The notes: generated from the sequence alone by a model not told the origin. Counted from the stretch's first letter, positions 4,905 through 22,205 are shown. The stretch: DNA of 64,000 nucleotides from Gammaproteobacteria bacterium (GCA_965237805.1 OZ250153.1:128001-192000), one strand, 5' to 3'. Made by a program: numbers and translations.

Positions 4905-7388
4905 ATGGAGCAGGAGCCGTTGGTGCCGGCTGAGAGCGATCGGCACGGCCTCCACTGGCGGCGTGAATTATTGCCGCTGGCGCTCGCTGTAGCCGCCTGC
5001 TATCTGCTGGCGGCGATGCTGAGTTACACGCCGTCCGATCCGGCGTGGACCACCAGCGGTAGCGGTGGTGGCCCGATTGGCAATTGGGGGGGGCCAGCTG
5101 GCGCTTGGTTGGTCGATGTGTTGTTCCACACTTTTGGCCAAGTCTCTTATTTGTTGGCGGTGGCACTGCTGGGTGTCAGCTATCAGCTGTTGCGCGGCGG
5201 CAGTTGGCGCTGGCATGGCATGGCGGGGCGCAGCTTGGCACTGGTGGTGTTTCTGTGCACGAGCTGTGCCCTCGCCGCGTTGGTGGCGGGGGAAATTGCA
5301 CCGGTAGCAGGTGGCGGCATGGCTCAGCTATTTGGTCCGCCGCAGGCTTTTTGCTCAGCGGTCGAAGGACCTTTGCCCTGTGGTGCTGGCGGCTTTGTGG
5401 GCTTGGAACTAGGGCGACGGGTGGCGGGTAGCTTTGGCGGTTTCGGGGCGCGTTTGTTGCTGTCCGCTGCCGCACTGCTGAGCCTGTCTTGGGTCGCACA
5501 CTTGTCTTGGTTGGCGACCACTGCGCGTAGTGGCGATTGGTTGCGGCGTGCGCTGGGTGCCGTGCTGGCCTGCGCTGCCCGCTTGGCGCTTTGGCTGGCT
5601 ACAGTCGGTCGGCGCGCGGGCACCTCACTGTGGACTGTGTTGCGTTACCGCAGCGGGCGGCTCATCGCCGCAGCGACCGCTCTCAAGCGGGTGTCGTCAG
5701 CTGTGCCGACACCAGTGACGGTGGCGCATTCGGACGATGCCGCGCCGCCATCCCCGTCATCGCCCGCGCCCCATCTCAGCACGGCAGCGATGCCGCCGGT
5801 AGCGCCAGTGCCAGCACGTCGCCCACCCGCCAAGGTGGCGCAGCGGGTCAAAGCGGGGGGCATGCCCTCCATCGAGTTGCTGGATCAGAGCAAAATCAAA
5901 GAGGATGTAGCTATCAGACGCGAGGAGTTGGCGGCGCTGGGTCAGCGCCTAGAGGGGCGCCTGAGTGATTTTGGCATCAGTGCCGAGGTGGTGTCGATCC
6001 ACCCGGGGCCGGTGATCACGCGCTTTGAAATCCGTCCGGCGGCAGGTATCAAAGTCAGCCGTATCAGTGCGTTGGCAAAGGATTTGGCGCGTTCGCTGGC
6101 GGTCATCAGTGTGCGTGTCGTCGAAGTGATTCCCGGGAAGTCGGTGGTCGGTATTGAGGTGCCCAACGAGCACCGCCAGCTGGTCACCTTGCACGATGTG
6201 TTGGCCTCGTCGGTCTGGCGCGAGTCGACCGCACCGCTGAGCTTTGCGCTCGGACACGACATCTCTGGGCGACCGGTGGTGGTCGATCTAAGCAAGATGC
6301 CGCACCTGCTGGTGGCGGGCACCACTGGCGCTGGTAAATCGGTGGGCATCAATGCCATGCTGCTCAGCCTGCTGCTCAAATCGCCGCCCGAACAAGTGCG
6401 CCTGATCTTGGTCGATCCAAAAATGCTTGAGCTGGCAGTCTATGAAGGCATCCCGCACCTGTTGACGCCGGTGATCACCGATATGAAAGACGCCGCCCGC
6501 GGCCTGCGCTGGTGTGTCGCCGAAATGGAGCGTCGCTATCAGCTGATGGCCGCGCTGGGTGTGCGCAATATGGATGGCTACAATCGCCGTGTGCGACAGG
6601 CGTTGGAGGCGGGTCAAGCCATGCACTTGGGGAGCGACGGCGTGTTGCTAGAGCACGACGACGAAGCGCTGGTGCCACCAGAGGAACTGTCCGCCGCGCT
6701 GGAGCCATTGCCTTTCATTGTTGTTGTCATCGACGAATTCGCCGATATGATGATGATCGTCGGCAAAAAAGTCGAGCAGCTGATCGCCCGCATCGCTCAG
6801 AAAGCACGAGCTGCTGGTATTCATCTGGTCTTGGCGACTCAGCGCCCCTCGGTTGATGTCATCACCGGCTTGATCAAAGCCAATATTCCCTCGCGCATCG
6901 CCTACCAAGTGCCGGCCAAGGTCGATGCGCGCACGATCATGGATCAGGCTGGTGCCGAGCAGCTGCTGGGGCATGGCGATATGCTCTACCTGCCAGCTGG
7001 TGGTAGCGTGCCGATGCGTGTGCACGGTGCCTTCGTTGCGGACGATGAAGTGCACCGAGTGGTAGCAGTTTGGAAAAAACAAAGTGAATCCAATTATTTA
7101 TCCGAAGTGCTTGAAGGTGTTATGCATGAAAATACAGGCGACTTCTCGTTGCCGGATAGCCGTGACGGTGGCTCCGAGAATGACGCAGCTGATCCGCTCT
7201 ACGATCAGGCGCTGAGCTTTGTCGTCTCATCGCGGCGCGGCTCGATCTCGGCCGTACAGCGCAAATTGCGCATTGGCTACAACCGTGCTGCCCGTCTGCT
7301 CGAAACCATGGAGCAGACAGGCGTGGTCAGCGCGATGGAGAGCAACGGCAGCCGCGAAGTATTGGCACCGGAGCCGCAGGAGGATTAG
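4905..7388 (+). CDS. ftsK: DNA translocase FtsK
   Basis: N-terminal TM region, Pro-rich linker, [33 protein letters not shown], gamma domain [14 protein letters not shown]. Confidence 0.97.
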
Positions 7389-9747: not shown

Positions 9748-11046
9748 ATGCTCGATCTAAAACAACTGCGCGACGCGCCAGTGGAGGTGGCGAAGCGCCT
9801 CGCCGAGCGCGGCCACACGCTGGACATAGCGGCCTTTACGGCGCTCGATACCGAGCGGCGACAGGCGGATATCGCCAGCCAGCAAATGCAGGCTGAGCGC
9901 CGCAGCACATCGAAGCACATCGGCGACTTGGTGCGCGGCGGCATGTCGGCGCAGGAGGCGCGACAGAGCCAAGAGGCGACGCTGCAAAAAATTGCCAGTC
10001 AACTCGAGCAACTCGAGGCTCGCAGTCGCGAATTAAATGGCCAGATCGAACGCTTCATTGCCCTCATCCCAAATCCACCGCATACGCAGACCCCCGACGG
10101 TCTGGCCGAGGAGGACAACCCCGAAGTGCTGCGCTGGGGCGAGCCGCGCCTCTCTGACGATGGCTTGCGCGACCATATCAGCTTGGGCGGGGAGGGGGCA
10201 CTCAATCTTGAGCGCGCCGCCGTTTTGGCTGGTTCCCGCTTTGCTGTGCTTGAGGGGGTACTCGCACGCCTGCACCGTGCGCTCAGCCAATTGATGCTGG
10301 ATCTGCATACTGAAGAGCACGGCTATCGCGAGCTCTATGTACCCTATTTGGCCAATGCCGAATCGCTGTTCGGCACCGGCCAGCTGCCGAAATTCGAAGA
10401 CGAACTGTTCCGCACGCGGGGGAGGGACGGTTATTACCTGATCCCCACTGGCGAGGTGCCGCTGGCCAATATGTTGCGCGACTGCATTCTGAAACCACAA
10501 CAGATCGCCACGCCGCTGCGCTACACTTGCCACAGCCCCTGTTTTCGCCGCGAGGCTGGCAGCTACGGCCGCGATGTCCGCGGCCTGATTCGCCAACATC
10601 AATTCGACAAAGTCGAACTGGTACAAGTGGCGCGTGCCGAAGATGCCTCGGCGGCGCTGGAGGATATGTGCACCCACGCCGAGGAAGTGTTGCGCCGCTT
10701 GGAGCTGCCTTACCGCAAGGTGGTTTTGTGCGCTGGCGAATTGAGTTTCGCCGCCTGTCGCGGCTACGATCTCGAGGTATGGATGGCGGCCAGCGCTCGC
10801 TATAGGGAAATCTCCTCGTGTAGCGACTGCGGCGACTTTCAAGCGCGGCGACTGATGGCTCGCTGGCGAGATCCCGAGCGCGGTGACTTGGCCTATCTGC
10901 ATACGCTGAACGGTTCTGGTGTCGCCGTCGGACGGTGTTTGGCGGCGTTGATGGAACAACATCAGCGTGCCGATGGCAGTATCGCGGTACCGGTTGCGCT
11001 GCGCCGCTATATGGGCGGTGCCGACAGCATCCGACCGGGCGACTGA
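9748..11046 (+). CDS. serS: Serine--tRNA ligase
   Basis: LIPTGEVP, FRREAGSYGRD.RGLIRQHQFDKVE, YREISSCS, HTLNGSG. Confidence 0.98.
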   Translation: MLDLKQLRDAPVEVAKRLAERGHTLDIAAFTALDTERRQADIASQQMQAERRSTSKHIGDLVRGGMSAQEARQSQEATLQKIASQLEQLEARSRELNGQIERFIALIPNPPHTQTPDGLAEEDNPEVLRWGEPRLSDDGLRDHISLGGEGALNLERAAVLAGSRFAVLEGVLARLHRALSQLMLDLHTEEHGYRELYVPYLANAESLFGTGQLPKFEDELFRTRGRDGYYLIPTGEVPLANMLRDCILKPQQIATPLRYTCHSPCFRREAGSYGRDVRGLIRQHQFDKVELVQVARAEDASAALEDMCTHAEEVLRRLELPYRKVVLCAGELSFAACRGYDLEVWMAASARYREISSCSDCGDFQARRLMARWRDPERGDLAYLHTLNGSGVAVGRCLAALMEQHQRADGSIAVPVALRRYMGGADSIRPGD

Positions 11047-11059
11047 CAGGCGGTTCGCG

Positions 11060-12436
11060 GTGCGCTACCTGCCGCTGTGCCTCGATCTGAGAGGTCGCCG
11101 ATGCCTGCTATTGGGCGCTGGCGACGCTGCGCATCGACGCGCTGAATTGCTACTGCGCACCGGTGCCCAGCTGCGGCTGGTGGCACCGGCAATCGCCCCA
11201 TCTTTGGCAGCGGTGGTGAGCGCCAGCGGTGGCAGCTGCCACCAGCGCGACTACTGCGAGCAAGATTTGGAGTCAGTGGTGCTGGCTGTCGGTGCCAGTG
11301 GCGATGAGCTGCTTGATCAGCGCTTAGCTGCAGATGCCAGCCGCCGTGGCATCTTGGTCAATATCGTCGATCGCAGTGAATTGTGCAGCGCCATATTCCC
11401 AGCCATCATCGACCGATCGCCTTTTTTGATCAGCGTCACCAGCGGTGCTGAGGCGCCGGGGCTGAGCCGTGCTCTACGCGGGCGGCTTGAGGCTTGCTTG
11501 CCCGAGCATTGGCGCACGCTGGGCGATTTTGCCTCCGGGCTTAGGGAGTCAGTGCGTCGGCGTCTGCCGGAGGCCACACGCCGACGGCGCTTCTGGGAAT
11601 GGCTGGCGGATGGTCCTGTCGCCTCGCTGCTGGCAGCTGGCCGCCGCGAGGATGCCGCGCTGGCTGCCGAAAAGGCCTTGGCGGAGGGGGAGGGGGCGGT
11701 GTCTCAGGGCGAGGTATTCTTGGTCGGTGCCGGTCCGGGGGATCCCGATTTGTTGACTTTGCGTGCGCTCCAGCTGTTGCAATCCGCCGACATCATTTTC
11801 TATGACCGCTTGGTGAGCGATGCCGTGTTGGAGCGCGCACGGCGCGATGCCGAGCGGGTCTGCGTCGGCAAAGCGCCGAAATCCCACTCCGTGCCCCAAG
11901 AGCAGATCAATCAATTATTGATCGAGCGGGCGCGCTCCGGGCAGCGCGTGTTGCGACTCAAGGGCGGCAACCCCTTCATTTTTGGGCGCGGTGGCGAGGA
12001 GATCGAACAGTTGGCCGCCGCAGGCATTCCATTTCAAATCGTGCCCGGCATAGGTGCCGCAGAGGGGGCCGCTTGCCATGCGGGTATTCCGTTGACGCAT
12101 CGCGACTGCGCCGATTCGGTACGCTTCCTGTCGGGGCATTTGCGCGACGGCAGCTGTGATGCGCCGTGGGCACAGCTGATGGAGCCGCGTCAGACCTTGG
12201 TGTTCTACATGGCGCTCGGTGCACATGCGGAAATCTGTGGGCAGCTGATCGCTCACGGCATGGCCGCTGAGCGGCCAGCGGCACTGGTCGAGCGCGCCAC
12301 CATGCCAGACCAGCGCGTCACAGCCGCCACGCTGCACACATTGCCCGAGCAGCTGGCTGCCGATGTGTCCGGGCCAGCGCTGTTGATCATCGGCGAAGTG
12401 ATCGCCAAGCGCCGCATGCTCGCCTGGCGCAGCTAG
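11060..12436 (+). CDS. cysG: Siroheme synthase (multifunctional CysG)
   Basis: GTG start giving MRYLPLCLDL; dehydrogenase/chelatase N-domain; methyltransferase motifs LVGAGPGDPDLLT and GRGGEE. Confidence 0.93.
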   Translation: MRYLPLCLDLRGRRCLLLGAGDAAHRRAELLLRTGAQLRLVAPAIAPSLAAVVSASGGSCHQRDYCEQDLESVVLAVGASGDELLDQRLAADASRRGILVNIVDRSELCSAIFPAIIDRSPFLISVTSGAEAPGLSRALRGRLEACLPEHWRTLGDFASGLRESVRRRLPEATRRRRFWEWLADGPVASLLAAGRREDAALAAEKALAEGEGAVSQGEVFLVGAGPGDPDLLTLRALQLLQSADIIFYDRLVSDAVLERARRDAERVCVGKAPKSHSVPQEQINQLLIERARSGQRVLRLKGGNPFIFGRGGEEIEQLAAAGIPFQIVPGIGAAEGAACHAGIPLTHRDCADSVRFLSGHLRDGSCDAPWAQLMEPRQTLVFYMALGAHAEICGQLIAHGMAAERPAALVERATMPDQRVTAATLHTLPEQLAADVSGPALLIIGEVIAKRRMLAWRS

Positions 12437-13875: not shown

Positions 13876-15948
13876 TTACAATTGCCGCAACGCGATGAAA
13901 TCCAACAAAAGTTCGGCGCTTTCGTGCAATAGCGGTTTGGCATCGGCATCGTATTGGCGCAGATCGTTGAGCAATTTGTGCTCTTGCTCGCGCTGCTGAG
14001 ATAGCTGGCGACGCCCTTGCTCCCACAACGGGATGCGTGTGTCTTGTTGCTTGTGTTGTTTGAAGAGCTCGGCGCGCTTTCTGAGGTATTGAAACTCGGG
14101 CTGCTGTGCTGTGCGCACACGGTGCTGCCGACGCAGCTCGGGCAGATAGCGATCGATATCGTAGTAATGGCGATGGCGCACCGAGGCGATGAGATCCCAT
14201 TGCATGGCATTGTCCAAGCTGCTCTCGCCAATTTCAGCAGCATCGTAACTGGGCGGAAAGAGCACATCTGGTTTGATGCCATGCAGTTGAGTGCTGTCTC
14301 CGGAAATGCGGTAGAACTTGGCGTCGGTCAGCCTCACTTGGCCAGCGCTCAGACTTTGCAAAGACTGCACAGTGCCTTTGCCGTAGGAGGGAGTGCCGAT
14401 GATCAGACCGCGGTCGTAATCCTGTATCGCGGCGGTAAAAATCTCGGCAGCGGAAGCGCTGAGACGGTTGATCAGCACCACTAGTGGCCAGTCGTAATAA
14501 GGCCCCCGGCGGATCTTCCCTTGGCGCAGTATGTGGTTGTTGCTCTGGCGCACTTGGACCACCGGGCCTTGGGAGATGAACAGGCCGGTGAGTGCGTTTG
14601 CCTCCTGTAGCGAGCCGCCACCATTGCCGCGCAAATCGATGATCAGGCCGGTGATGCCATCGTCGTGTGCTTGATTTGTTTCGTCTTGCTGACGCATTTC
14701 GCTGAGCAGGCGTAGCACGTCCCGCGTCGTGCTGCGGTAACCGACCTCACCGTTTTCGTAGGCGCGGAAATCCAAATAAAAGGAGGGGATGCGCAGTACG
14801 CCGATGCGGTAGGTGCTACTGCTGCGGCGTAGTTCGATCACTTGGCTCTGTGCGGCTTGGCTCTCCAATTTGACACTATCGCGCACGATCGACACCACCC
14901 GCGTGCCCGTGGCATCAGTGATTTCGGCACCCGGTGCCAATAGCCGCAGACGCACGGTGCTGCCGCGCTCACCGCGTATGCGCGCGACGACATCATCCAG
15001 CCGCCAGCCGGTGACCTGAACGAAGTCGCCAGCGTCCCCTTGGGCGATGGCAACGATATGGTCACCAGCCTTCAATTCCCCTTGATGCTCTGCTGGCCCG
15101 CCCTTGACCAGCTGCACCACCTGGGTGTAATCGCCGTTGCGACGCAGGGTGGCACCGATGCCCTCTAACGATAAGCTCATCGAGATGCGAAAATTTTCAG
15201 AGGATCTTGGTGACATATAATATGTATGTGCATCATATAATTGTGCGTATGAATTAAGGAATAAATTGACCACATCGTCGGCTTTCATTTCGTGCGTACG
15301 ATCGCGTTCGGTCGTGATTTGTTGGCGCAGCTTGATCAATTGTGTCGCTGTGCTCTCGCCGCTGATAATCAATCCCAGCAGTCGGTGTTGTAGGCGTTGT
15401 CGCCAGCGTTCGCTCAATGCGGCATCGTCAGCCGCCCATGGTCGCTTGCCGGGATCGGACAGTAAATATTCTTCGTGTTGCAGCTGCAGAGTCGCCACGC
15501 GTGATTCCAAGCTGGCCAACTCTAAGTCGAGCAGGCTGAGCAGACGCTTGCGATAGTAGTTAAAAATAGTGAAGGCTGGCACCAGATTGCCAGCGCGCAA
15601 GGCATCATCGAGCGATTTTCGGTGTTGGCCAAAGGCGGCGACATCGCTCTTGCGGAACACTAGGCGTTCTCCGTCCACCTTGTCCACATAGCTTGCTAAG
15701 AGGCGCTCGGACAGGGCATCGTCCACTGATATTTTGAGGTAGTGGCGAGCCCGTAAGCGTTGTGTGAGCTCGCGCGTTACCCGCTGGTGTTGCAGGCTTG
15801 GCATCAAATGTTCTACTTTGTTGATAGCGACGGCGGGCGAGTCCTTGGCCATTGCTGTTGTGAAGAGGGCAGTTGCGCAGCTCGCCAACCCGAATGCGAT
15901 GCCCAGCCGCAATCGACGATGATTTAACATAATATATATTCTACGCAC
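13876..15948 (-). CDS. prc: Carboxy-terminal processing (tail-specific) protease, S41 family; start at GTG 15948, ATG 15930 or TTG 15912
   Basis: Signal peptide, DAHTYY, SLEGIGA, PDZ domain, DLRGNGGGSL, SASAAEI, GKGTVQ, STQLHGIKPD. Confidence 0.93.
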   Translation of the reverse strand: MRRIYIMLNHRRLRLGIAFGLASCATALFTTAMAKDSPAVAINKVEHLMPSLQHQRVTRELTQRLRARHYLKISVDDALSERLLASYVDKVDGERLVFRKSDVAAFGQHRKSLDDALRAGNLVPAFTIFNYYRKRLLSLLDLELASLESRVATLQLQHEEYLLSDPGKRPWAADDAALSERWRQRLQHRLLGLIISGESTATQLIKLRQQITTERDRTHEMKADDVVNLFLNSYAQLYDAHTYYMSPRSSENFRISMSLSLEGIGATLRRNGDYTQVVQLVKGGPAEHQGELKAGDHIVAIAQGDAGDFVQVTGWRLDDVVARIRGERGSTVRLRLLAPGAEITDATGTRVVSIVRDSVKLESQAAQSQVIELRRSSSTYRIGVLRIPSFYLDFRAYENGEVGYRSTTRDVLRLLSEMRQQDETNQAHDDGITGLIIDLRGNGGGSLQEANALTGLFISQGPVVQVRQSNNHILRQGKIRRGPYYDWPLVVLINRLSASAAEIFTAAIQDYDRGLIIGTPSYGKGTVQSLQSLSAGQVRLTDAKFYRISGDSTQLHGIKPDVLFPPSYDAAEIGESSLDNAMQWDLIASVRHRHYYDIDRYLPELRRQHRVRTAQQPEFQYLRKRAELFKQHKQQDTRIPLWEQGRRQLSQQREQEHKLLNDLRQYDADAKPLLHESAELLLDFIALRQL

Positions 15949-15949
15949 A
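15922..15949 (-). other. dif: dif site (XerC/XerD chromosome dimer resolution site)
   Basis: Minus strand reads TGTGCGTAGAA-TATATA-TTATGTTAAAT. The XerD arm is identical to E. coli dif, the spacer is 6 bp, and the XerC arm matches GGTGCGCATAA at 8/11. Confidence 0.88.
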
Positions 15950-16095
15950 ATCCACTATGGCAGATGTGCCAGTATAGCCGATGGTGGGCTATCAGGGCGT
16001 TTTGGCGGTGCTGGAGCTGCCTTGGATGCCTCCTCACCTATGCTAGAGTACGGGCACCTAGGCCGCGATGGGCGCGGCGATACGGTGCCATCCAT

Positions 16096-17646
16096 ATGTC
16101 TGATCACGACACTCCTCGAAGTTGGGGGCAATCCCTGTTGAGCTCGTTTTTGGGGAATAGCCCGCTTTGGTACAAATACACCATCATCGGCTTCTTGTTG
16201 CTAAACCCGCTGGTGTTGTGGGGCTTGGAGACCTTGCTGCCGTCTGCGAGTGCGCCCAGCTTGGGCATGAGCATCACCGCGTGGATGCTCCTGCTGGAGT
16301 TTATCTTCAGCTTGGCGATGGCGCGGCACTGTTATCCCTTGCAACCCGGTGGCCTGCTGGCGCTGGAGGCGGTGTTCCTCGGTCTCACCAGTCCCGGCCA
16401 TGTTTACCAAGAGCTATTACAGAACTTCGAGGTCCTTTTGTTGTTGATGTTCATGGTCGCGGGTATTTATTTCATGCGCCAGCTGCTGTTGATGCTATTC
16501 AGCCGTCTGTTGGTCTCTGTACCGTCGCAAACCCAGCTGTCGCTGATGTTTTGTGGAATGGCGGCACTGTTGTCGGCCTTTCTCGATGCGCTGACGGTGA
16601 TGGCCGTGCTGATCAGTATCGGTGTCGGCTTCTATCAGGTATACCACCAAGCGGTCACTGGTGTCGCGCTCGATCTGGACGCCCCGCAGCGCGAGGAGCT
16701 GCCAGACAGCGCACGTGTCGACTTGGAACAATTCGCCCGTGCGTTGCGCGGTCTGCTGATGCACGGTGCGGTGGGTACTGCGATCGGCGGTGTGTGCACC
16801 TTGGTCGGCGAACCGCAAAACCTGCTGATCGGCAGTCGTATGTCGTGGCATTTCATGGATTTCTTCTGGCATATGGCACCGGTCACGATGCCGGTGGTGG
16901 TGGTGGGTTTGCTCTGTTGCGTGTTGCTGGAGAGCAGTGGTCGCTTCGGCTACGGCACGGCCATCCCCCAGCGGGTGCACCAATGTCTGCGCGACTATGT
17001 GGCTCAGGAGCACGCCACGCGTACGCCGCGCCAAGCCCATGCGCTGGTCGTGCAGGCTGTTGGTGGCATGTTGCTGGTGGTAGCGCTGGCGCTACATATC
17101 GCGCCGATCGGGCTGATCGGGCTCGGTCTGATCGTGTTTCTGACCGCTTTCAACGGTGTGGTCAATGAGCGCGAGCTGGGGTCAGCCTTCCACGAAGCTC
17201 TGCCTTTCACTGCCTTGTTGGTCGTTTTTTTCGTCATTGTCGCTGTCATCGGCGATCAGCAATTGTTCAGTGCTGCGATCGCTGCAGCGCTGTCCTTGGA
17301 AAGCGCTGGTGCCCAGCGCATCGCTTTTTTCATGAGCAGTGGTGCCCTGTCCATCATCAGCGACAATGTCTTTGTCGCCACCATCTATATGAACGAACTC
17401 TCCGACAGCTTGCGCACCGGTGCCATCAGTCGTGCGCGAGCCGAGGAGCTGGCGGTGGCCATCAATACCGGCACCAACTTGGCCAGCGTCGGCACCCCCA
17501 ATGGTCAGGCGGCCTTCCTGTTTCTGCTGACCTCCAGCTTGGCACCCCTGATTGAACTGTCCTACGGACGCATGGTGTGGATGGCATTGCCCTACACCGT
17601 TGTGCTCAGTCTCTCTGGCCTACTCGCCTTGCGTTTCATGCTCTAG
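16096..17646 (+). CDS. nhaB: Na+/H+ antiporter NhaB
   Basis: FLGNSP.WYK, CYPLQPGGLLA, LSAFLDALTV, GEPQNL, ISDNVFV, GTNLASVGTPNGQAAFLFLLTS. Confidence 0.96.
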   Translation: MSDHDTPRSWGQSLLSSFLGNSPLWYKYTIIGFLLLNPLVLWGLETLLPSASAPSLGMSITAWMLLLEFIFSLAMARHCYPLQPGGLLALEAVFLGLTSPGHVYQELLQNFEVLLLLMFMVAGIYFMRQLLLMLFSRLLVSVPSQTQLSLMFCGMAALLSAFLDALTVMAVLISIGVGFYQVYHQAVTGVALDLDAPQREELPDSARVDLEQFARALRGLLMHGAVGTAIGGVCTLVGEPQNLLIGSRMSWHFMDFFWHMAPVTMPVVVVGLLCCVLLESSGRFGYGTAIPQRVHQCLRDYVAQEHATRTPRQAHALVVQAVGGMLLVVALALHIAPIGLIGLGLIVFLTAFNGVVNERELGSAFHEALPFTALLVVFFVIVAVIGDQQLFSAAIAAALSLESAGAQRIAFFMSSGALSIISDNVFVATIYMNELSDSLRTGAISRARAEELAVAINTGTNLASVGTPNGQAAFLFLLTSSLAPLIELSYGRMVWMALPYTVVLSLSGLLALRFML

Positions 17647-18974: not shown

Positions 18975-19763
18975 ATGTTGGAATTCTACCCGGTGCCCGC
19001 CTTCGAAGATAATTATCTGTGGCTGATCACGCGCGCTGGCAACGACGGGGCTTTTATTGTTGACCCCGGCGATGCGGCACCAGTGATCGCGGAGTTGGCG
19101 CGCCGCAGCTTGTCGCTGGCCGGTATTTTACTGACCCATCACCATTTCGACCACACCGGTGGTATCGATGCCCTGCTGAGCCGCTGGCCGGTACCGGTGG
19201 CGGGCCCCGACAATCCGGTGATTGGGCAGCTGAGCCAAGTGTTGGCCGAGGGCGATCGTGTGTCGGTGCTGGGGGCAGAGTTCGAAGTGTTAGCCGTGCC
19301 CGGTCACACCTTGGATCATATCGCACTGTTCTACCCCGGGGACGGGGGTGGAGAAGCACCCGCCCTGCTCTGTGGAGACACTTTGTTCGCTGGTGGTTGT
19401 GGGCGGTTGTTCGAGGGCACCGCGGCGCAGATGTGGGCATCGTTGTGCAAGCTGGCGCAGCTGCCGGCGGCGACCCGTGTCTACTGCGCTCACGAATACA
19501 CGCTGGCAAACCTGCGCTTTGCGCGTGCAGCTGAGCCGGACAATAGCGATTTGGAGCGGCGTTGGGACGCAGCCGATGCCAGTCGGCGGCAGGGGCAGCC
19601 AACCCTCCCCTCCACCATCGCTCTAGAGCGTGCCACCAATCCCTTTTTGCGCTGCATGGAAATCACCACTGGCTCCGCAATGCCAGCAGAGCTGGGTGCG
19701 GGGCCATTTGATACACCGGAACAGGCTTTTGCCGCCCTGCGTGAGTGGAAAGATCGTTTTTAG
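18975..19763 (+). CDS. gloB: Hydroxyacylglutathione hydrolase (glyoxalase II)
   Basis: [48 protein letters not shown]. Confidence 0.96.
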
Positions 19764-19816: not shown

Positions 19817-19846
19817 TTGACAACCCCGCGCTATGAGGCCGATAAT
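19817..19846 (+). promoter_or_regulatory. Sigma70-type promoter upstream of mltD
   Basis: TTGACA (19817-19822), 18-nt spacer, GATAAT (19841-19846); AAGAGGA RBS before ATG 19899. Confidence 0.6.
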
Positions 19847-19898
19847 AGGGCGGATAAGCATTGTCGCACCCCCTCCCCTCCATCAAGAGGATGCTGGA

Positions 19899-22205
19899 AT
19901 GAGCAAGGTCGTGGTTACCGCCCTGTGCCCAGAATGGCGATGGGGTTCGAGCCAGCTAAGCCCTAATCGTCGGGTAGGGTCCCCGTTCCTCGCGGCGTTG
20001 TTGGCTGTGGTCTTTTGTAGCATCGCTTGGCCGAGCTTGGCCAGCGCCCGTCCCGATCATGCCCGCATGGGTAGTGCGCGCAGCGACCAGCTGGGTACGG
20101 TGCAGCCTACCGACCAAGATGAGGCGGCAGAGCGGCGGCACAATCGCCGCGAGCAACGTGAGCTGGCACGGCAACAACGTCGGGAAAAACGAGCAAGTGC
20201 GTCGACACGGTTACCGCAATCCGCTCAGCCCGACAAGGCCGATAAGTCGGCGCTGACGGCAAAGCCGCGCAAGAATTGGCAGCGCTTTGTGCCAGCCTCC
20301 GATACCGTTGCCGAGGCCGATCTCTGGCAGCGGGTGCGGGCGGGCTTTTCGATGGATCTCGATGCGGTCTGCGATGCGGAGGTAGTCGCGCCTTTGCTGC
20401 GCCGTTACGAAGAGCGCACGGGCGTTTACTTGGAGCGCATTCTGGCGCGTGCGAATCCCTATTTGCACCATATCGTCGAGCGATTGGAGGAGCGCGGCAT
20501 GCCGCTGGAGCTGGCCGTCTTGCCCGTGGTGGAGAGTGCCTATGATCCCTTTGCCTATTCGCCGGGCAAAGCCGCTGGCTTGTGGCAATTCATCTCCCAC
20601 ACAGCTGCGCTTTTCGGGATGCACAGCGATTGGTGGATCGAGGGTCGCAACGATATCCGGGCCTCCACCGATGCTGCGCTGAGCTATCTGAGCAAATTGC
20701 ACACCCAAAATAAAGGCGACTGGTTGCTGGCGATGGCCTCATACAATGCCGGTTTGGGTGCCGTCAGGCGTGCGGTGTCCTATGTGCGTGCTGAAAACAA
20801 AGTGCTGTGGCGCCGTGCCCAGCAGCGCGTTAAGGATGGCCAGCGGCAGCTGCGCAAAGCCGAGGCGCGGGCTCGTGCCGCAACGCGACTGTCGGAGACG
20901 GCACAACAGCAGCTGCAAGTGGCACAGGTCCAGCTGGAGTACTTGCGTGCGGAGTTTGTGGCATTGATCGATGCCGCCGATATTGGTCAGACAGAGATCG
21001 AGGTGATCAGACCAGTCGCTGCTGGCGAAGTGATGGCAGTGGTCGTGCTGAGTACCGGCGCGGATGGTATGCACAGCGCCGAACAGGCGGTGACAGAGGC
21101 CGCCGCGCAGCTGGCAGTGGCGTCGGTGTCGGTGCGACGCACGCTGGACAAAGTGGCGCAAGCCGACGAGCGGCTGTTGCTGGTGCGCGCCAACCTTGAG
21201 CGCCAAAATGCTGCTGTGGATTTGGCCAAGGCCAAGTTTGAGCGCTGGCCTACTTTTGGTGAGCTGCGCAAACTGCCGCAGGAAACTCGCAGTTATATTC
21301 CAAAATTCTGCGCTATTGCGCAGATCGTTGCCACACCTGCCCGTTACGGCATCACGATCGCCCCAGTGCCAGATCTTCCCTACTTTTCTGAGGTCGATAT
21401 CGGGGCCCAGCTCGACTTGGCTTTGGCCGCCGAATTGGCTGGTGTCAACATCGAAGTCATCTACCGACTGAATCCATCCATGCGGCGCTGGGCAACGCCA
21501 CCGGATGGGCCGCACCGCTTGCTGGTGCCAGTCGCACAACGCGCATTGATGGAATCCAATTTGGCACAGCTAGCGCCAAAGCACCGACTGCGCTGGATCA
21601 ATCATCAGCTGCGCAAGGGTGAGGGGCTCAATAGCATCGCACGGCACTATCACACCACTGTCGAGGCGATCCAGCGTATCAACAGCTTGCCAGATGGTGC
21701 TAGCCTGCGACTGGGCGACCAGCTGTTGGTCATGGCACCCTTGTACGCACTCGATCGCTATGTGCTGAGCGAGGGGCAACAGCGCATGTCGCAGACCGCT
21801 CTGCGCAGCACTGCCAAGAAACGGCCTGTTCAGCAGCGCTTCCACCATGTGGTGCGTGATGGGGAGAGTTTGTGGAGCATTTCGCGCCAATACGGTATCG
21901 GCAGCTATGACCAGATCGCCATATGGAATCGTTTGGACAGCAATGCTCCTCTGCCGATGGGCACCCGTCTGTCGCTATGGATTCCCCCCAACAACACCAC
22001 GCAACGGGGAAATGCCGTTGCCACGGTGGTCGGCGATCGCGATTATGAGCGTGTGACCTACAAGGTGCGCAGTGGCGATTCGCTGAGTGGTATCGCCCAA
22101 CGTTTTGGTGTTGATATTCGGCAAATTGCCCAATGGAATTCCATTGATGTGCATCAATACATCCAGCCCCAACAAATTTTGGTGCTTTATCCGGCAACAC
22201 GTTGA
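19899..22205 (+). CDS. mltD: MltD-type lytic murein transglycosylase with three LysM domains and a ~150-aa helical insertion
   Basis: DLWQRVRAGF, LPVVESAY (catalytic Glu), AAGLWQF, DWLLAMASYNAG, LPQETRSYIPK, three LysM repeats; follows gloB. Confidence 0.9.
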   Translation: MSKVVVTALCPEWRWGSSQLSPNRRVGSPFLAALLAVVFCSIAWPSLASARPDHARMGSARSDQLGTVQPTDQDEAAERRHNRREQRELARQQRREKRASASTRLPQSAQPDKADKSALTAKPRKNWQRFVPASDTVAEADLWQRVRAGFSMDLDAVCDAEVVAPLLRRYEERTGVYLERILARANPYLHHIVERLEERGMPLELAVLPVVESAYDPFAYSPGKAAGLWQFISHTAALFGMHSDWWIEGRNDIRASTDAALSYLSKLHTQNKGDWLLAMASYNAGLGAVRRAVSYVRAENKVLWRRAQQRVKDGQRQLRKAEARARAATRLSETAQQQLQVAQVQLEYLRAEFVALIDAADIGQTEIEVIRPVAAGEVMAVVVLSTGADGMHSAEQAVTEAAAQLAVASVSVRRTLDKVAQADERLLLVRANLERQNAAVDLAKAKFERWPTFGELRKLPQETRSYIPKFCAIAQIVATPARYGITIAPVPDLPYFSEVDIGAQLDLALAAELAGVNIEVIYRLNPSMRRWATPPDGPHRLLVPVAQRALMESNLAQLAPKHRLRWINHQLRKGEGLNSIARHYHTTVEAIQRINSLPDGASLRLGDQLLVMAPLYALDRYVLSEGQQRMSQTALRSTAKKRPVQQRFHHVVRDGESLWSISRQYGIGSYDQIAIWNRLDSNAPLPMGTRLSLWIPPNNTTQRGNAVATVVGDRDYERVTYKVRSGDSLSGIAQRFGVDIRQIAQWNSIDVHQYIQPQQILVLYPATR

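Follow-up and report, generated by a model that had tools for sequence, protein, structure and literature searches.

A chromosomal dif site that probably overlaps the translation start of prc in a gammaproteobacterium

Can the site at which XerCD resolves chromosome dimers also serve as the front end of a protein-coding gene? The question is raised by a 64,000-nt stretch of the chromosome of a Gammaproteobacteria bacterium (GCA_965237805.1 OZ250153.1:128001-192000; hereafter the window, G000:C1:128001-192000), which belongs to a single-contig genome (G000) of 1,725,584 bp with 61.6% G+C. A 28-bp dif site lies on the minus strand of the window at positions 15922 to 15949, at the 5′ end of prc, the gene for an S41 C-terminal processing peptidase. 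The initial annotation of this locus had proposed that the same 28 bp serve as recombination site and translation initiation region, and all the computational evidence available supports that proposal. We regard it as likely that dif and the front end of prc share these nucleotides, with translation starting at ATG 15930 within the site and with no regulatory function attached to the overlap. Of this reading, we infer the binding of XerCD, the identity of the start codon, the prc promoter, and the passive nature of the overlap.

Read on the minus strand from 15949 to 15922, the site is TGTGCGTAGAA TATATA TTATGTTAAAT, with an 11-6-11 layout of XerC arm (15949-15939), central region (15938-15933), and XerD arm (15932-15922). 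It shares 24 of 28 positions with the dif of Escherichia coli K12 as listed in Table 1 of PMC2731167 (Carnoy & Roten 2009), i.e., 8/11 in the XerC arm, 5/6 in the center, and 11/11 in the XerD arm, which had been correctly read as identical to its E. coli counterpart. The same arm matches most gammaproteobacterial sites of that table at 11/11. A degenerate gammaproteobacterial dif pattern, allowing up to 3 mismatches, had a single match in the window and none in 100 shuffles, and a genome-wide scan with a position weight matrix built from 28 dif sites, all from other Gammaproteobacteria, scored this site at 46.1 bits versus 11.1 bits for the runner-up, leaving no better dif elsewhere. No second copy of the 28-mer exists genome-wide at up to 8 substitutions, and the exact XerD arm occurs a single time in the genome. 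The site has a G+C content of 21% (6/28) versus 61.6% for the genome. The match to dif is far beyond chance, and by sequence, uniqueness, and position the 28-mer is the only dif of the chromosome. An Rfam scan of positions 15500-16500 gave 0 matches at an E value of ≤1, and folding of the RNA from 15970 to 15891 (−18.4 kcal/mol; z = 0.15) disclosed no special structure.

The prc gene spans 13876..15930 on the minus strand (684 amino acids) from ATG 15930 in the XerD arm, or 13876..15948 (690 amino acids) from the alternative GTG 15948 in the XerC arm. Its product scored 270.1 bits with the family profile TIGR00225 (cut-off, 218.6) and 529 bits with NF008388, under the cut-off of 825. The prc frame crosses dif and contains GTG 15948-15946, ATG 15930-15928, and TTG 15912-15910, the last of them 9 nt beyond the site. 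These positions confirm that GTG 15948 falls in the XerC arm and that the XerD arm, from ATG 15930, encodes M-L-N in the prc frame; ATG 15852 (Met27) is a further candidate start that was missing from the initial annotation. Translation from ATG 15930 would yield the predicted signal peptide MLNHRRLRLGIAFGLASCATALFTTAMA (15847..15930, minus strand), whose first three codons are the XerD arm. Inspection by eye and with a Kyte-Doolittle window showed a basic stretch followed by a hydrophobic core, with IAFGLASCATAL as the top hydrophobic 12-mer, and in our own reading this leader looks like a standard signal peptide cleaved after A-M-A. Exact matches to the three candidate Prc proteins were absent from the protein collection. 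On leader features and on the comparison with related genomes, ATG 15930 appears to be the best-supported start of prc and is favored over GTG 15948 and TTG 15912.

The order to which the bacterium belongs is represented in the collection by five species genomes of 1.5 to 2.1 Mb (G000 to G004), with G001 belonging to the same genus as G000. One dif match was found per genome in all five, always at the 5′ end of prc and with the XerD arm on the prc side, so that the linkage holds throughout the sample. Because the dif pattern was written from those five sites, the uniqueness of the match is informative and its presence is not. When the five upstream regions are aligned, conservation is confined to dif, in which 20 of 28 positions are invariant, and the Prc proteins of the order members are 42 to 65% identical. 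Gene order is the same in G000 and G001 (gor, prc, dif, nhaB, dnaQ, rnhA). An extra nudC lies between dif and nhaB in G003, G002 reads nhaB-nudC-dif-prc and differs beyond prc, and both flanks have changed in G004 (sohB-dif-prc-bcp), leaving dif-prc as the only constant across the order.

Start codons were compared by listing, for each genome, all in-frame ATG, GTG, and TTG codons from the upstream stop to the hydrophobic core. Ahead of the core, the AT-rich G004 has only a TTG in the XerC arm, with a stop directly before it, and the XerD-arm ATG; prc must therefore start inside dif in this genome, there being no other in-frame candidate. The upstream gene of G004, sohB, ends 3 nt before dif, and RNA polymerase must thus cross the site to reach prc. 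The G001 leader has GTT at the position of GTG 15948 and CTG at that of TTG 15912, and offers GTG, ATG, and GTG codons upstream of dif, at −59, −35, and −5, respectively. Of the starts common to G000 and G001, only the XerD-arm ATG leaves a charged N-region, and codons 6 and 7 of the two genes differ synonymously only (CGA/CGG and TTG/CTG). G002 has a second ATG-TTA-AAT just outside dif, as well as later starts. This second copy arose when 27 bp, the XerD arm and 16 further nt, were duplicated in tandem and in frame (L003:1176-1230; G002:C1:16491-16545; 21/27 positions identical), an event that may represent an escape from the overlap.

The chromosomal context of the site was assessed with FtsK-orienting polar sequences (KOPS), for which we used as consensus the G-rich octamer GGGNAGGG as quoted in PMC2680272. 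KOPS-like motifs of the window lie on the plus strand at 10189, 10419, and 11687, and the next ones on the minus strand at 19603 and 19871. The last rightward octamer before dif (GGGNAGGG; 11687..11694, plus strand; genome 139,687) and the first leftward one after it (19603..19610, minus strand; genome 147,603) thus mark a polarity flip that brackets dif at genome 143,922-143,949. Within ±200 kb of dif, the left side has 19+/2− motifs and the right side 9+/23−. The complete genome of G003 shows a flip between 932,045 and 932,859 (left, 72+/15−; right, 10+/53−), with dif at 932,694 and the cumulative GC skew peaking in the bin ending at 932,000. In G002, also complete, the flip falls between 12,047 and 18,380 (45+/14− and 9+/50−), with dif at 16,491. 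The recombination machinery is encoded in G000 as well. XerD scored 352 bits (cut-off, 329.6) and XerC 330.4 bits, just below its cut-off of 335.15, and ftsK, for the DNA translocase (4905..7388, plus strand; NF007615 E value, 1.2e-207; PF01580, 246.7 bits), is located 8.5 kb from dif. FtsK aligned to positions 865-1354 of the 1355 of NF007615, so that the C-terminal gamma region is included.

The site thus resembles the E. coli-type dif/XerCD-FtsK system in its 11-6-11 layout, XerD arm, single copy, low G+C content, KOPS junction, and accompanying xerC, xerD, and ftsK genes. It departs from it in the XerC arm, where G000 and G001 have a G at position 9 (TAGAA) in place of the CATAA of canonical dif. 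It also differs in that a typical dif is intergenic, whereas the G000 site and the start of a conserved housekeeping gene overlap, a pairing kept order-wide. As family knowledge would have it, FtsK is steered by the polar G-rich octamers to dif and there activates XerCD, resolving chromosome dimers. In the arrangement that we propose, the XerC arm and the central region would be transcribed as the last ∼19 nt of the prc 5′ untranslated region (UTR), and the XerD arm would be translated as ATG-TTA-AAT, so that pre-Prc would begin with M-L-N, followed by the basic stretch and the hydrophobic core. Dimer resolution would leave prc unaltered because an exchange between two identical dif sites regenerates the original sequence. 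The near-invariant XerD arm would be readable as protein because the extreme N terminus of a signal peptide is under almost no constraint. The overlap probably arose once, in a compact ancestor of the order, and would have been frozen since then because any rearrangement that separated dif from prc would destroy one or the other. The exceptions in G002, with its duplication, and in G003, where the start is displaced (see below), suggest that it is tolerated rather than required.

How rare is this arrangement? Outside the order, dif was beside prc at 0 of 121 Prc loci, a total that comprises the three sets given here. The first consists of same-class Prc loci (0/10). A scan of genome contigs with a Prc alignment retrieved 80 loci, with dif beside prc at 0/79 of those from other genomes, the 80th (L037) being G004 itself; weak dif look-alikes with 4 and 6 mismatches lie ∼2 kb from prc in L072 and L094. 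Metagenome contigs scanned with the protein P0012 had a dif-like site at 0 of 32 loci, among which the contig of P0012 itself does not figure. According to the available text of PMC2731167, 96.3% of 161 proteobacterial dif sites are non-coding and dif has "no apparent specific genetic environment", and that of PMC3025954 gives 93.9% of predicted dif sites as non-coding; the exceptions in coding DNA described there are mostly hypothetical or phage open reading frames (ORFs) (PMC2731167, PMC3025954). A full-text literature search, with subscription journals outside its reach, returned no prior report of a dif-prc junction.

We also inspected 67 published dif sites of other Gammaproteobacteria, a sample that leaves out the unpublished G043 and also G121. 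An ORF of at least 100 codons begins at an arm ATG in 8/67 sites, with family support in 2/67. In the first, an unrelated gammaproteobacterium (G076:C4; L184:1492-2032), a P-loop kinase ORF (PF01202 shikimate-kinase family; 42 bits) starts at an ATG on the complement of the XerC arm of the single dif match, with a stop 6 codons upstream and an alternative GTG at codon 9. In the second (G086:C189; L224:1516-2454), a Peptidase_M90 (MtfA-like) ORF of 275 bits is in frame with the XerD-arm ATG and has Met23 as an alternative. Both are like dif-prc in that an arm ATG opens a family-supported gene; they differ from it in being single genomes with a plausible later start and no comparative support.

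Several observations weigh against the proposed arrangement. A sigma-70 promoter scan of the prc strand gave no match, and a Shine-Dalgarno (SD) match is absent at all four prc start candidates; the latter test is non-discriminating, since several neighboring genes also pair poorly at their longest-ORF starts. The coding overlap is not universal. In G003 the XerD arm reads ATG-TAA, prc runs in a different frame, and the sole candidate start is a GTG 5 nt past dif, so that coding overlap is absent. In G002, the signal peptides obtained from GTG at +117 and TTG at +138 look better than the one from the dif ATG. Because the five genomes are kin, the junction counts as one inherited arrangement and not as five independent events. 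The cumulative GC skew of G000, which has its minimum near 1,088 kb, climbs to ∼150 kb and is then flat, shows no peak at dif. Its maximum, at 225 kb, lies 81 kb away, and GC skew alone is thus a loose locator in this genome. The expectation that dif would coincide with the skew switch was accordingly borne out by the flip of KOPS-like motifs and not by the GC skew maximum, although the skew does peak at dif in G003. In addition, the polarity of G-rich octamers partly mirrors GC skew, and the two signals are not fully independent.

A further point of this kind concerns TTG 15912, whose product MRLGIAFGLASCATALFTTAMA would have a short, workable signal peptide (22 residues) in G000. With a start past dif, at TTG 15912 or ATG 15852, a genuine dif would lie only within the 5′ UTR, and its being crossed by an open frame would be incidental. 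ATG 15852 is the start used by the collection gene call P0002, a protein of 658 amino acids that lacks a signal peptide, GC-rich genomes hold frames open by chance, and the dif ATG is dispensable in G002 and G003. We nevertheless consider a downstream start unlikely. The position of TTG 15912 is CTG in G001, and the exclusively synonymous differences at codons 6 and 7 are those expected if this stretch is translated. Initiation at ATG 15852 would deprive a periplasmic protease of its whole hydrophobic leader, and this codon has no counterpart in G001. Moreover, the AT-rich G004 is devoid of start codons between dif and the hydrophobic core. The P0002 start was probably mis-called, the true start being SD-less and AT-rich.

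A functional coupling, in which dif-bound XerCD or septal FtsK would gate prc transcription or translation, or insertion of integrative mobile elements exploiting Xer (IMEX) would be penalized by loss of the promoter, is likewise improbable. The suggestion of the initial annotation that XerCD occupancy could influence prc expression is accordingly speculative. The persistence of the junction across the order, even though both flanks changed in G004, speaks for it, and XerCD-dif complexes are presented in the available text of PMC2800217 as blocks strong enough to stop FtsK. However, physical overlap alone accounts for the linkage. The 27-bp duplication of G002 places a second ATG outside dif and the start of G003 is also outside, as expected of an overlap that is tolerated, and a relic of an integrated element is seen at 0 of the 5 dif sites of the order.

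Initiation at GTG 15948, which would render dif coding from its second base (MRRIYIMLN...), is quite unlikely in our judgment. No other in-frame start separates this codon from the upstream stop, and it is the only candidate with some SD-like pairing, albeit weak (−3.1 kcal/mol), and TTG codons occupy the same arm position in G002 and G004, directly after stops. Yet its GTT counterpart in G001 makes it weaker than the initial annotation had held in naming it, together with ATG 15930, as one of the two strongest starts, a ranking that survives for the ATG. The spacing between GGA and GTG is just 2 nt, and the collection gene calls, which are gene-caller choices only, begin at MLN in G001 and at the second MLN in G002.

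A broader reading can also be formulated. The outward-facing ATGs that are inherent in the dif palindrome (TTATG in the XerD arm, mirrored in the XerC arm) would be a recurrent source of start codons in compact Gammaproteobacteria, and the AT-rich, unstructured 28-mer would act as an SD-independent landing pad for ribosomes in a GC-rich genome; in this order it would also be a switch, with XerCD occupancy and FtsK arrival gating Prc synthesis and IMEX insertion being punished by promoter loss. We hold this broader reading to be improbable. Finally, that the 28-mer is a chance or relic look-alike, with the working dif elsewhere, is hardly credible, since the GC skew maximum 81 kb away is set against the lack of any other genome candidate above 11.1 bits, the flip of KOPS-like motifs at dif in three complete genomes (G000, G002, and G003), and 20/28 invariant positions in an order whose Prc proteins are 42 to 65% identical. 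A passive overlap of dif with a prc start at ATG 15930 thus remains the reading that we prefer.

A block, ATCGGCTATACT, situated ∼20 nt upstream of dif and common to G000 and G001, possibly corresponds to the prc −10 region; it includes the candidate −10 box TATACT (15971..15976, minus strand), ∼21 nt upstream of dif. A leaderless prc mRNA initiated from the −10-like TAGAAT in the XerC arm was considered and discarded, as no usable −35 was found by eye. Divergent from prc, nhaB encodes a Na+/H+ antiporter (16096..17646, plus strand; NF007093, 703 bits; cut-off, 640; match from residue 52 of a long ORF). With its likely start at ATG 16096, 165 bp separate the two start codons. On the plus strand, positions 15913-15951 contain two sigma-70-like hexamer pairs in or across dif that face nhaB, TCGACG-16-TATATT and TTAACA-16-CACAAT, which are consensus matches only; the TTAACA used as −35 comes from the complement of the XerD arm.

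The dif of G000 presents the same target sequence as the attachment sites of IMEX and should in principle be open to such elements, of which CTXphi, VGJphi, and the Cf/phiLf phages are mentioned as dif users in the available text of PMC2731167. Neither an integrated element nor a hybrid dif site was found in the five genomes of the order, where the flanks are housekeeping genes (prc and nhaB; nudC or sohB in the relatives). The doubled XerD arm of G002 was examined as an IMEX relic and rejected, given its 27-bp unit with 21/27 identical positions and the absence of an XerC-like arm beside the second copy. From the known Xer mechanism, strand exchange upon insertion would occur in the central region, and the incoming DNA would take the place of the XerC arm, 5′ UTR, and promoter; prc would keep its coding sequence and the ATG-bearing XerD arm of the chromosome but would be cut off from its promoter. 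The earlier suggestion that any IMEX would rewrite the prc 5′ end should thus be restricted to the promoter side of the exchange and does not extend to the XerD-arm ATG or the coding sequence. Another Xer site with a role in gene expression is cer of ColE1, which according to the available text of PMC4393325 holds a promoter for a small RNA (Rcd) active in plasmid dimers. By analogy, cer/Rcd indicates that an Xer site can drive state-dependent expression (PMC4393325). The two cases differ in that cer acts as a state-dependent promoter, whereas dif-prc would supply a start codon and part of a 5′ UTR.

Additional features of these genomes deserve mention. A protein related to the G003 Prc (80% identical), P0010, known as protein only and encoded on a 55-kb ENA contig, has an N-terminal extension with IRIIHIMSN. 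This peptide could be the translation of an in-frame dif with the XerD arm TTATGTCAAAT; in that case, dif and prc would not keep a constant frame relation within the genus of G003. The skew of G000 is flat for ∼75 kb to the right of dif (genome 150-225 kb; window 22000-64000 and beyond) before it declines, even though KOPS-like motifs are already leftward there, which may reflect gene-strand composition or a past rearrangement. A single 10-kb bin of G000 at ∼1,600-1,610 kb has a very high G excess (+1833), as do 10-kb bins of G002 located 100-80 kb before the contig end (+1809 and +1947), and G003 shows a sharp local skew reversal ∼145 kb to the left of dif (G003:C1:782000-792000; L114-L115). 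In the window, ftsK belongs to the block trxB-ftsK-lolA-rarA-serS, and mltD (19833-22205) and dnaQ/rnhA are less than 6 kb from dif, so that several genes for chromosome maintenance and the cell envelope are grouped at the terminus.

Collectively, these findings describe dif-prc as a variant of the known dif system that is moderately surprising and whose regulatory role is speculative; if purely passive, the overlap would show only how genome compaction can lock two essential features to each other. Sites of this kind are usually viewed as intergenic and without a fixed gene neighborhood, whereas the dif described here is bona fide and yet includes the start of a conserved housekeeping gene. 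The junction has persisted while Prc identity fell as low as 42% and both flanks were rearranged. For annotators, the recorded gene call of G000 prc, which skips the signal peptide, is a warning. The near-invariant XerD arm can also be read as codons, which fixes the N terminus of the protein as Met-Leu-Asn, and the arrangement predicts that IMEX insertion in this lineage would bear a built-in cost. The junction also offers a natural system for asking whether XerCD and FtsK at dif disturb transcription and translation.

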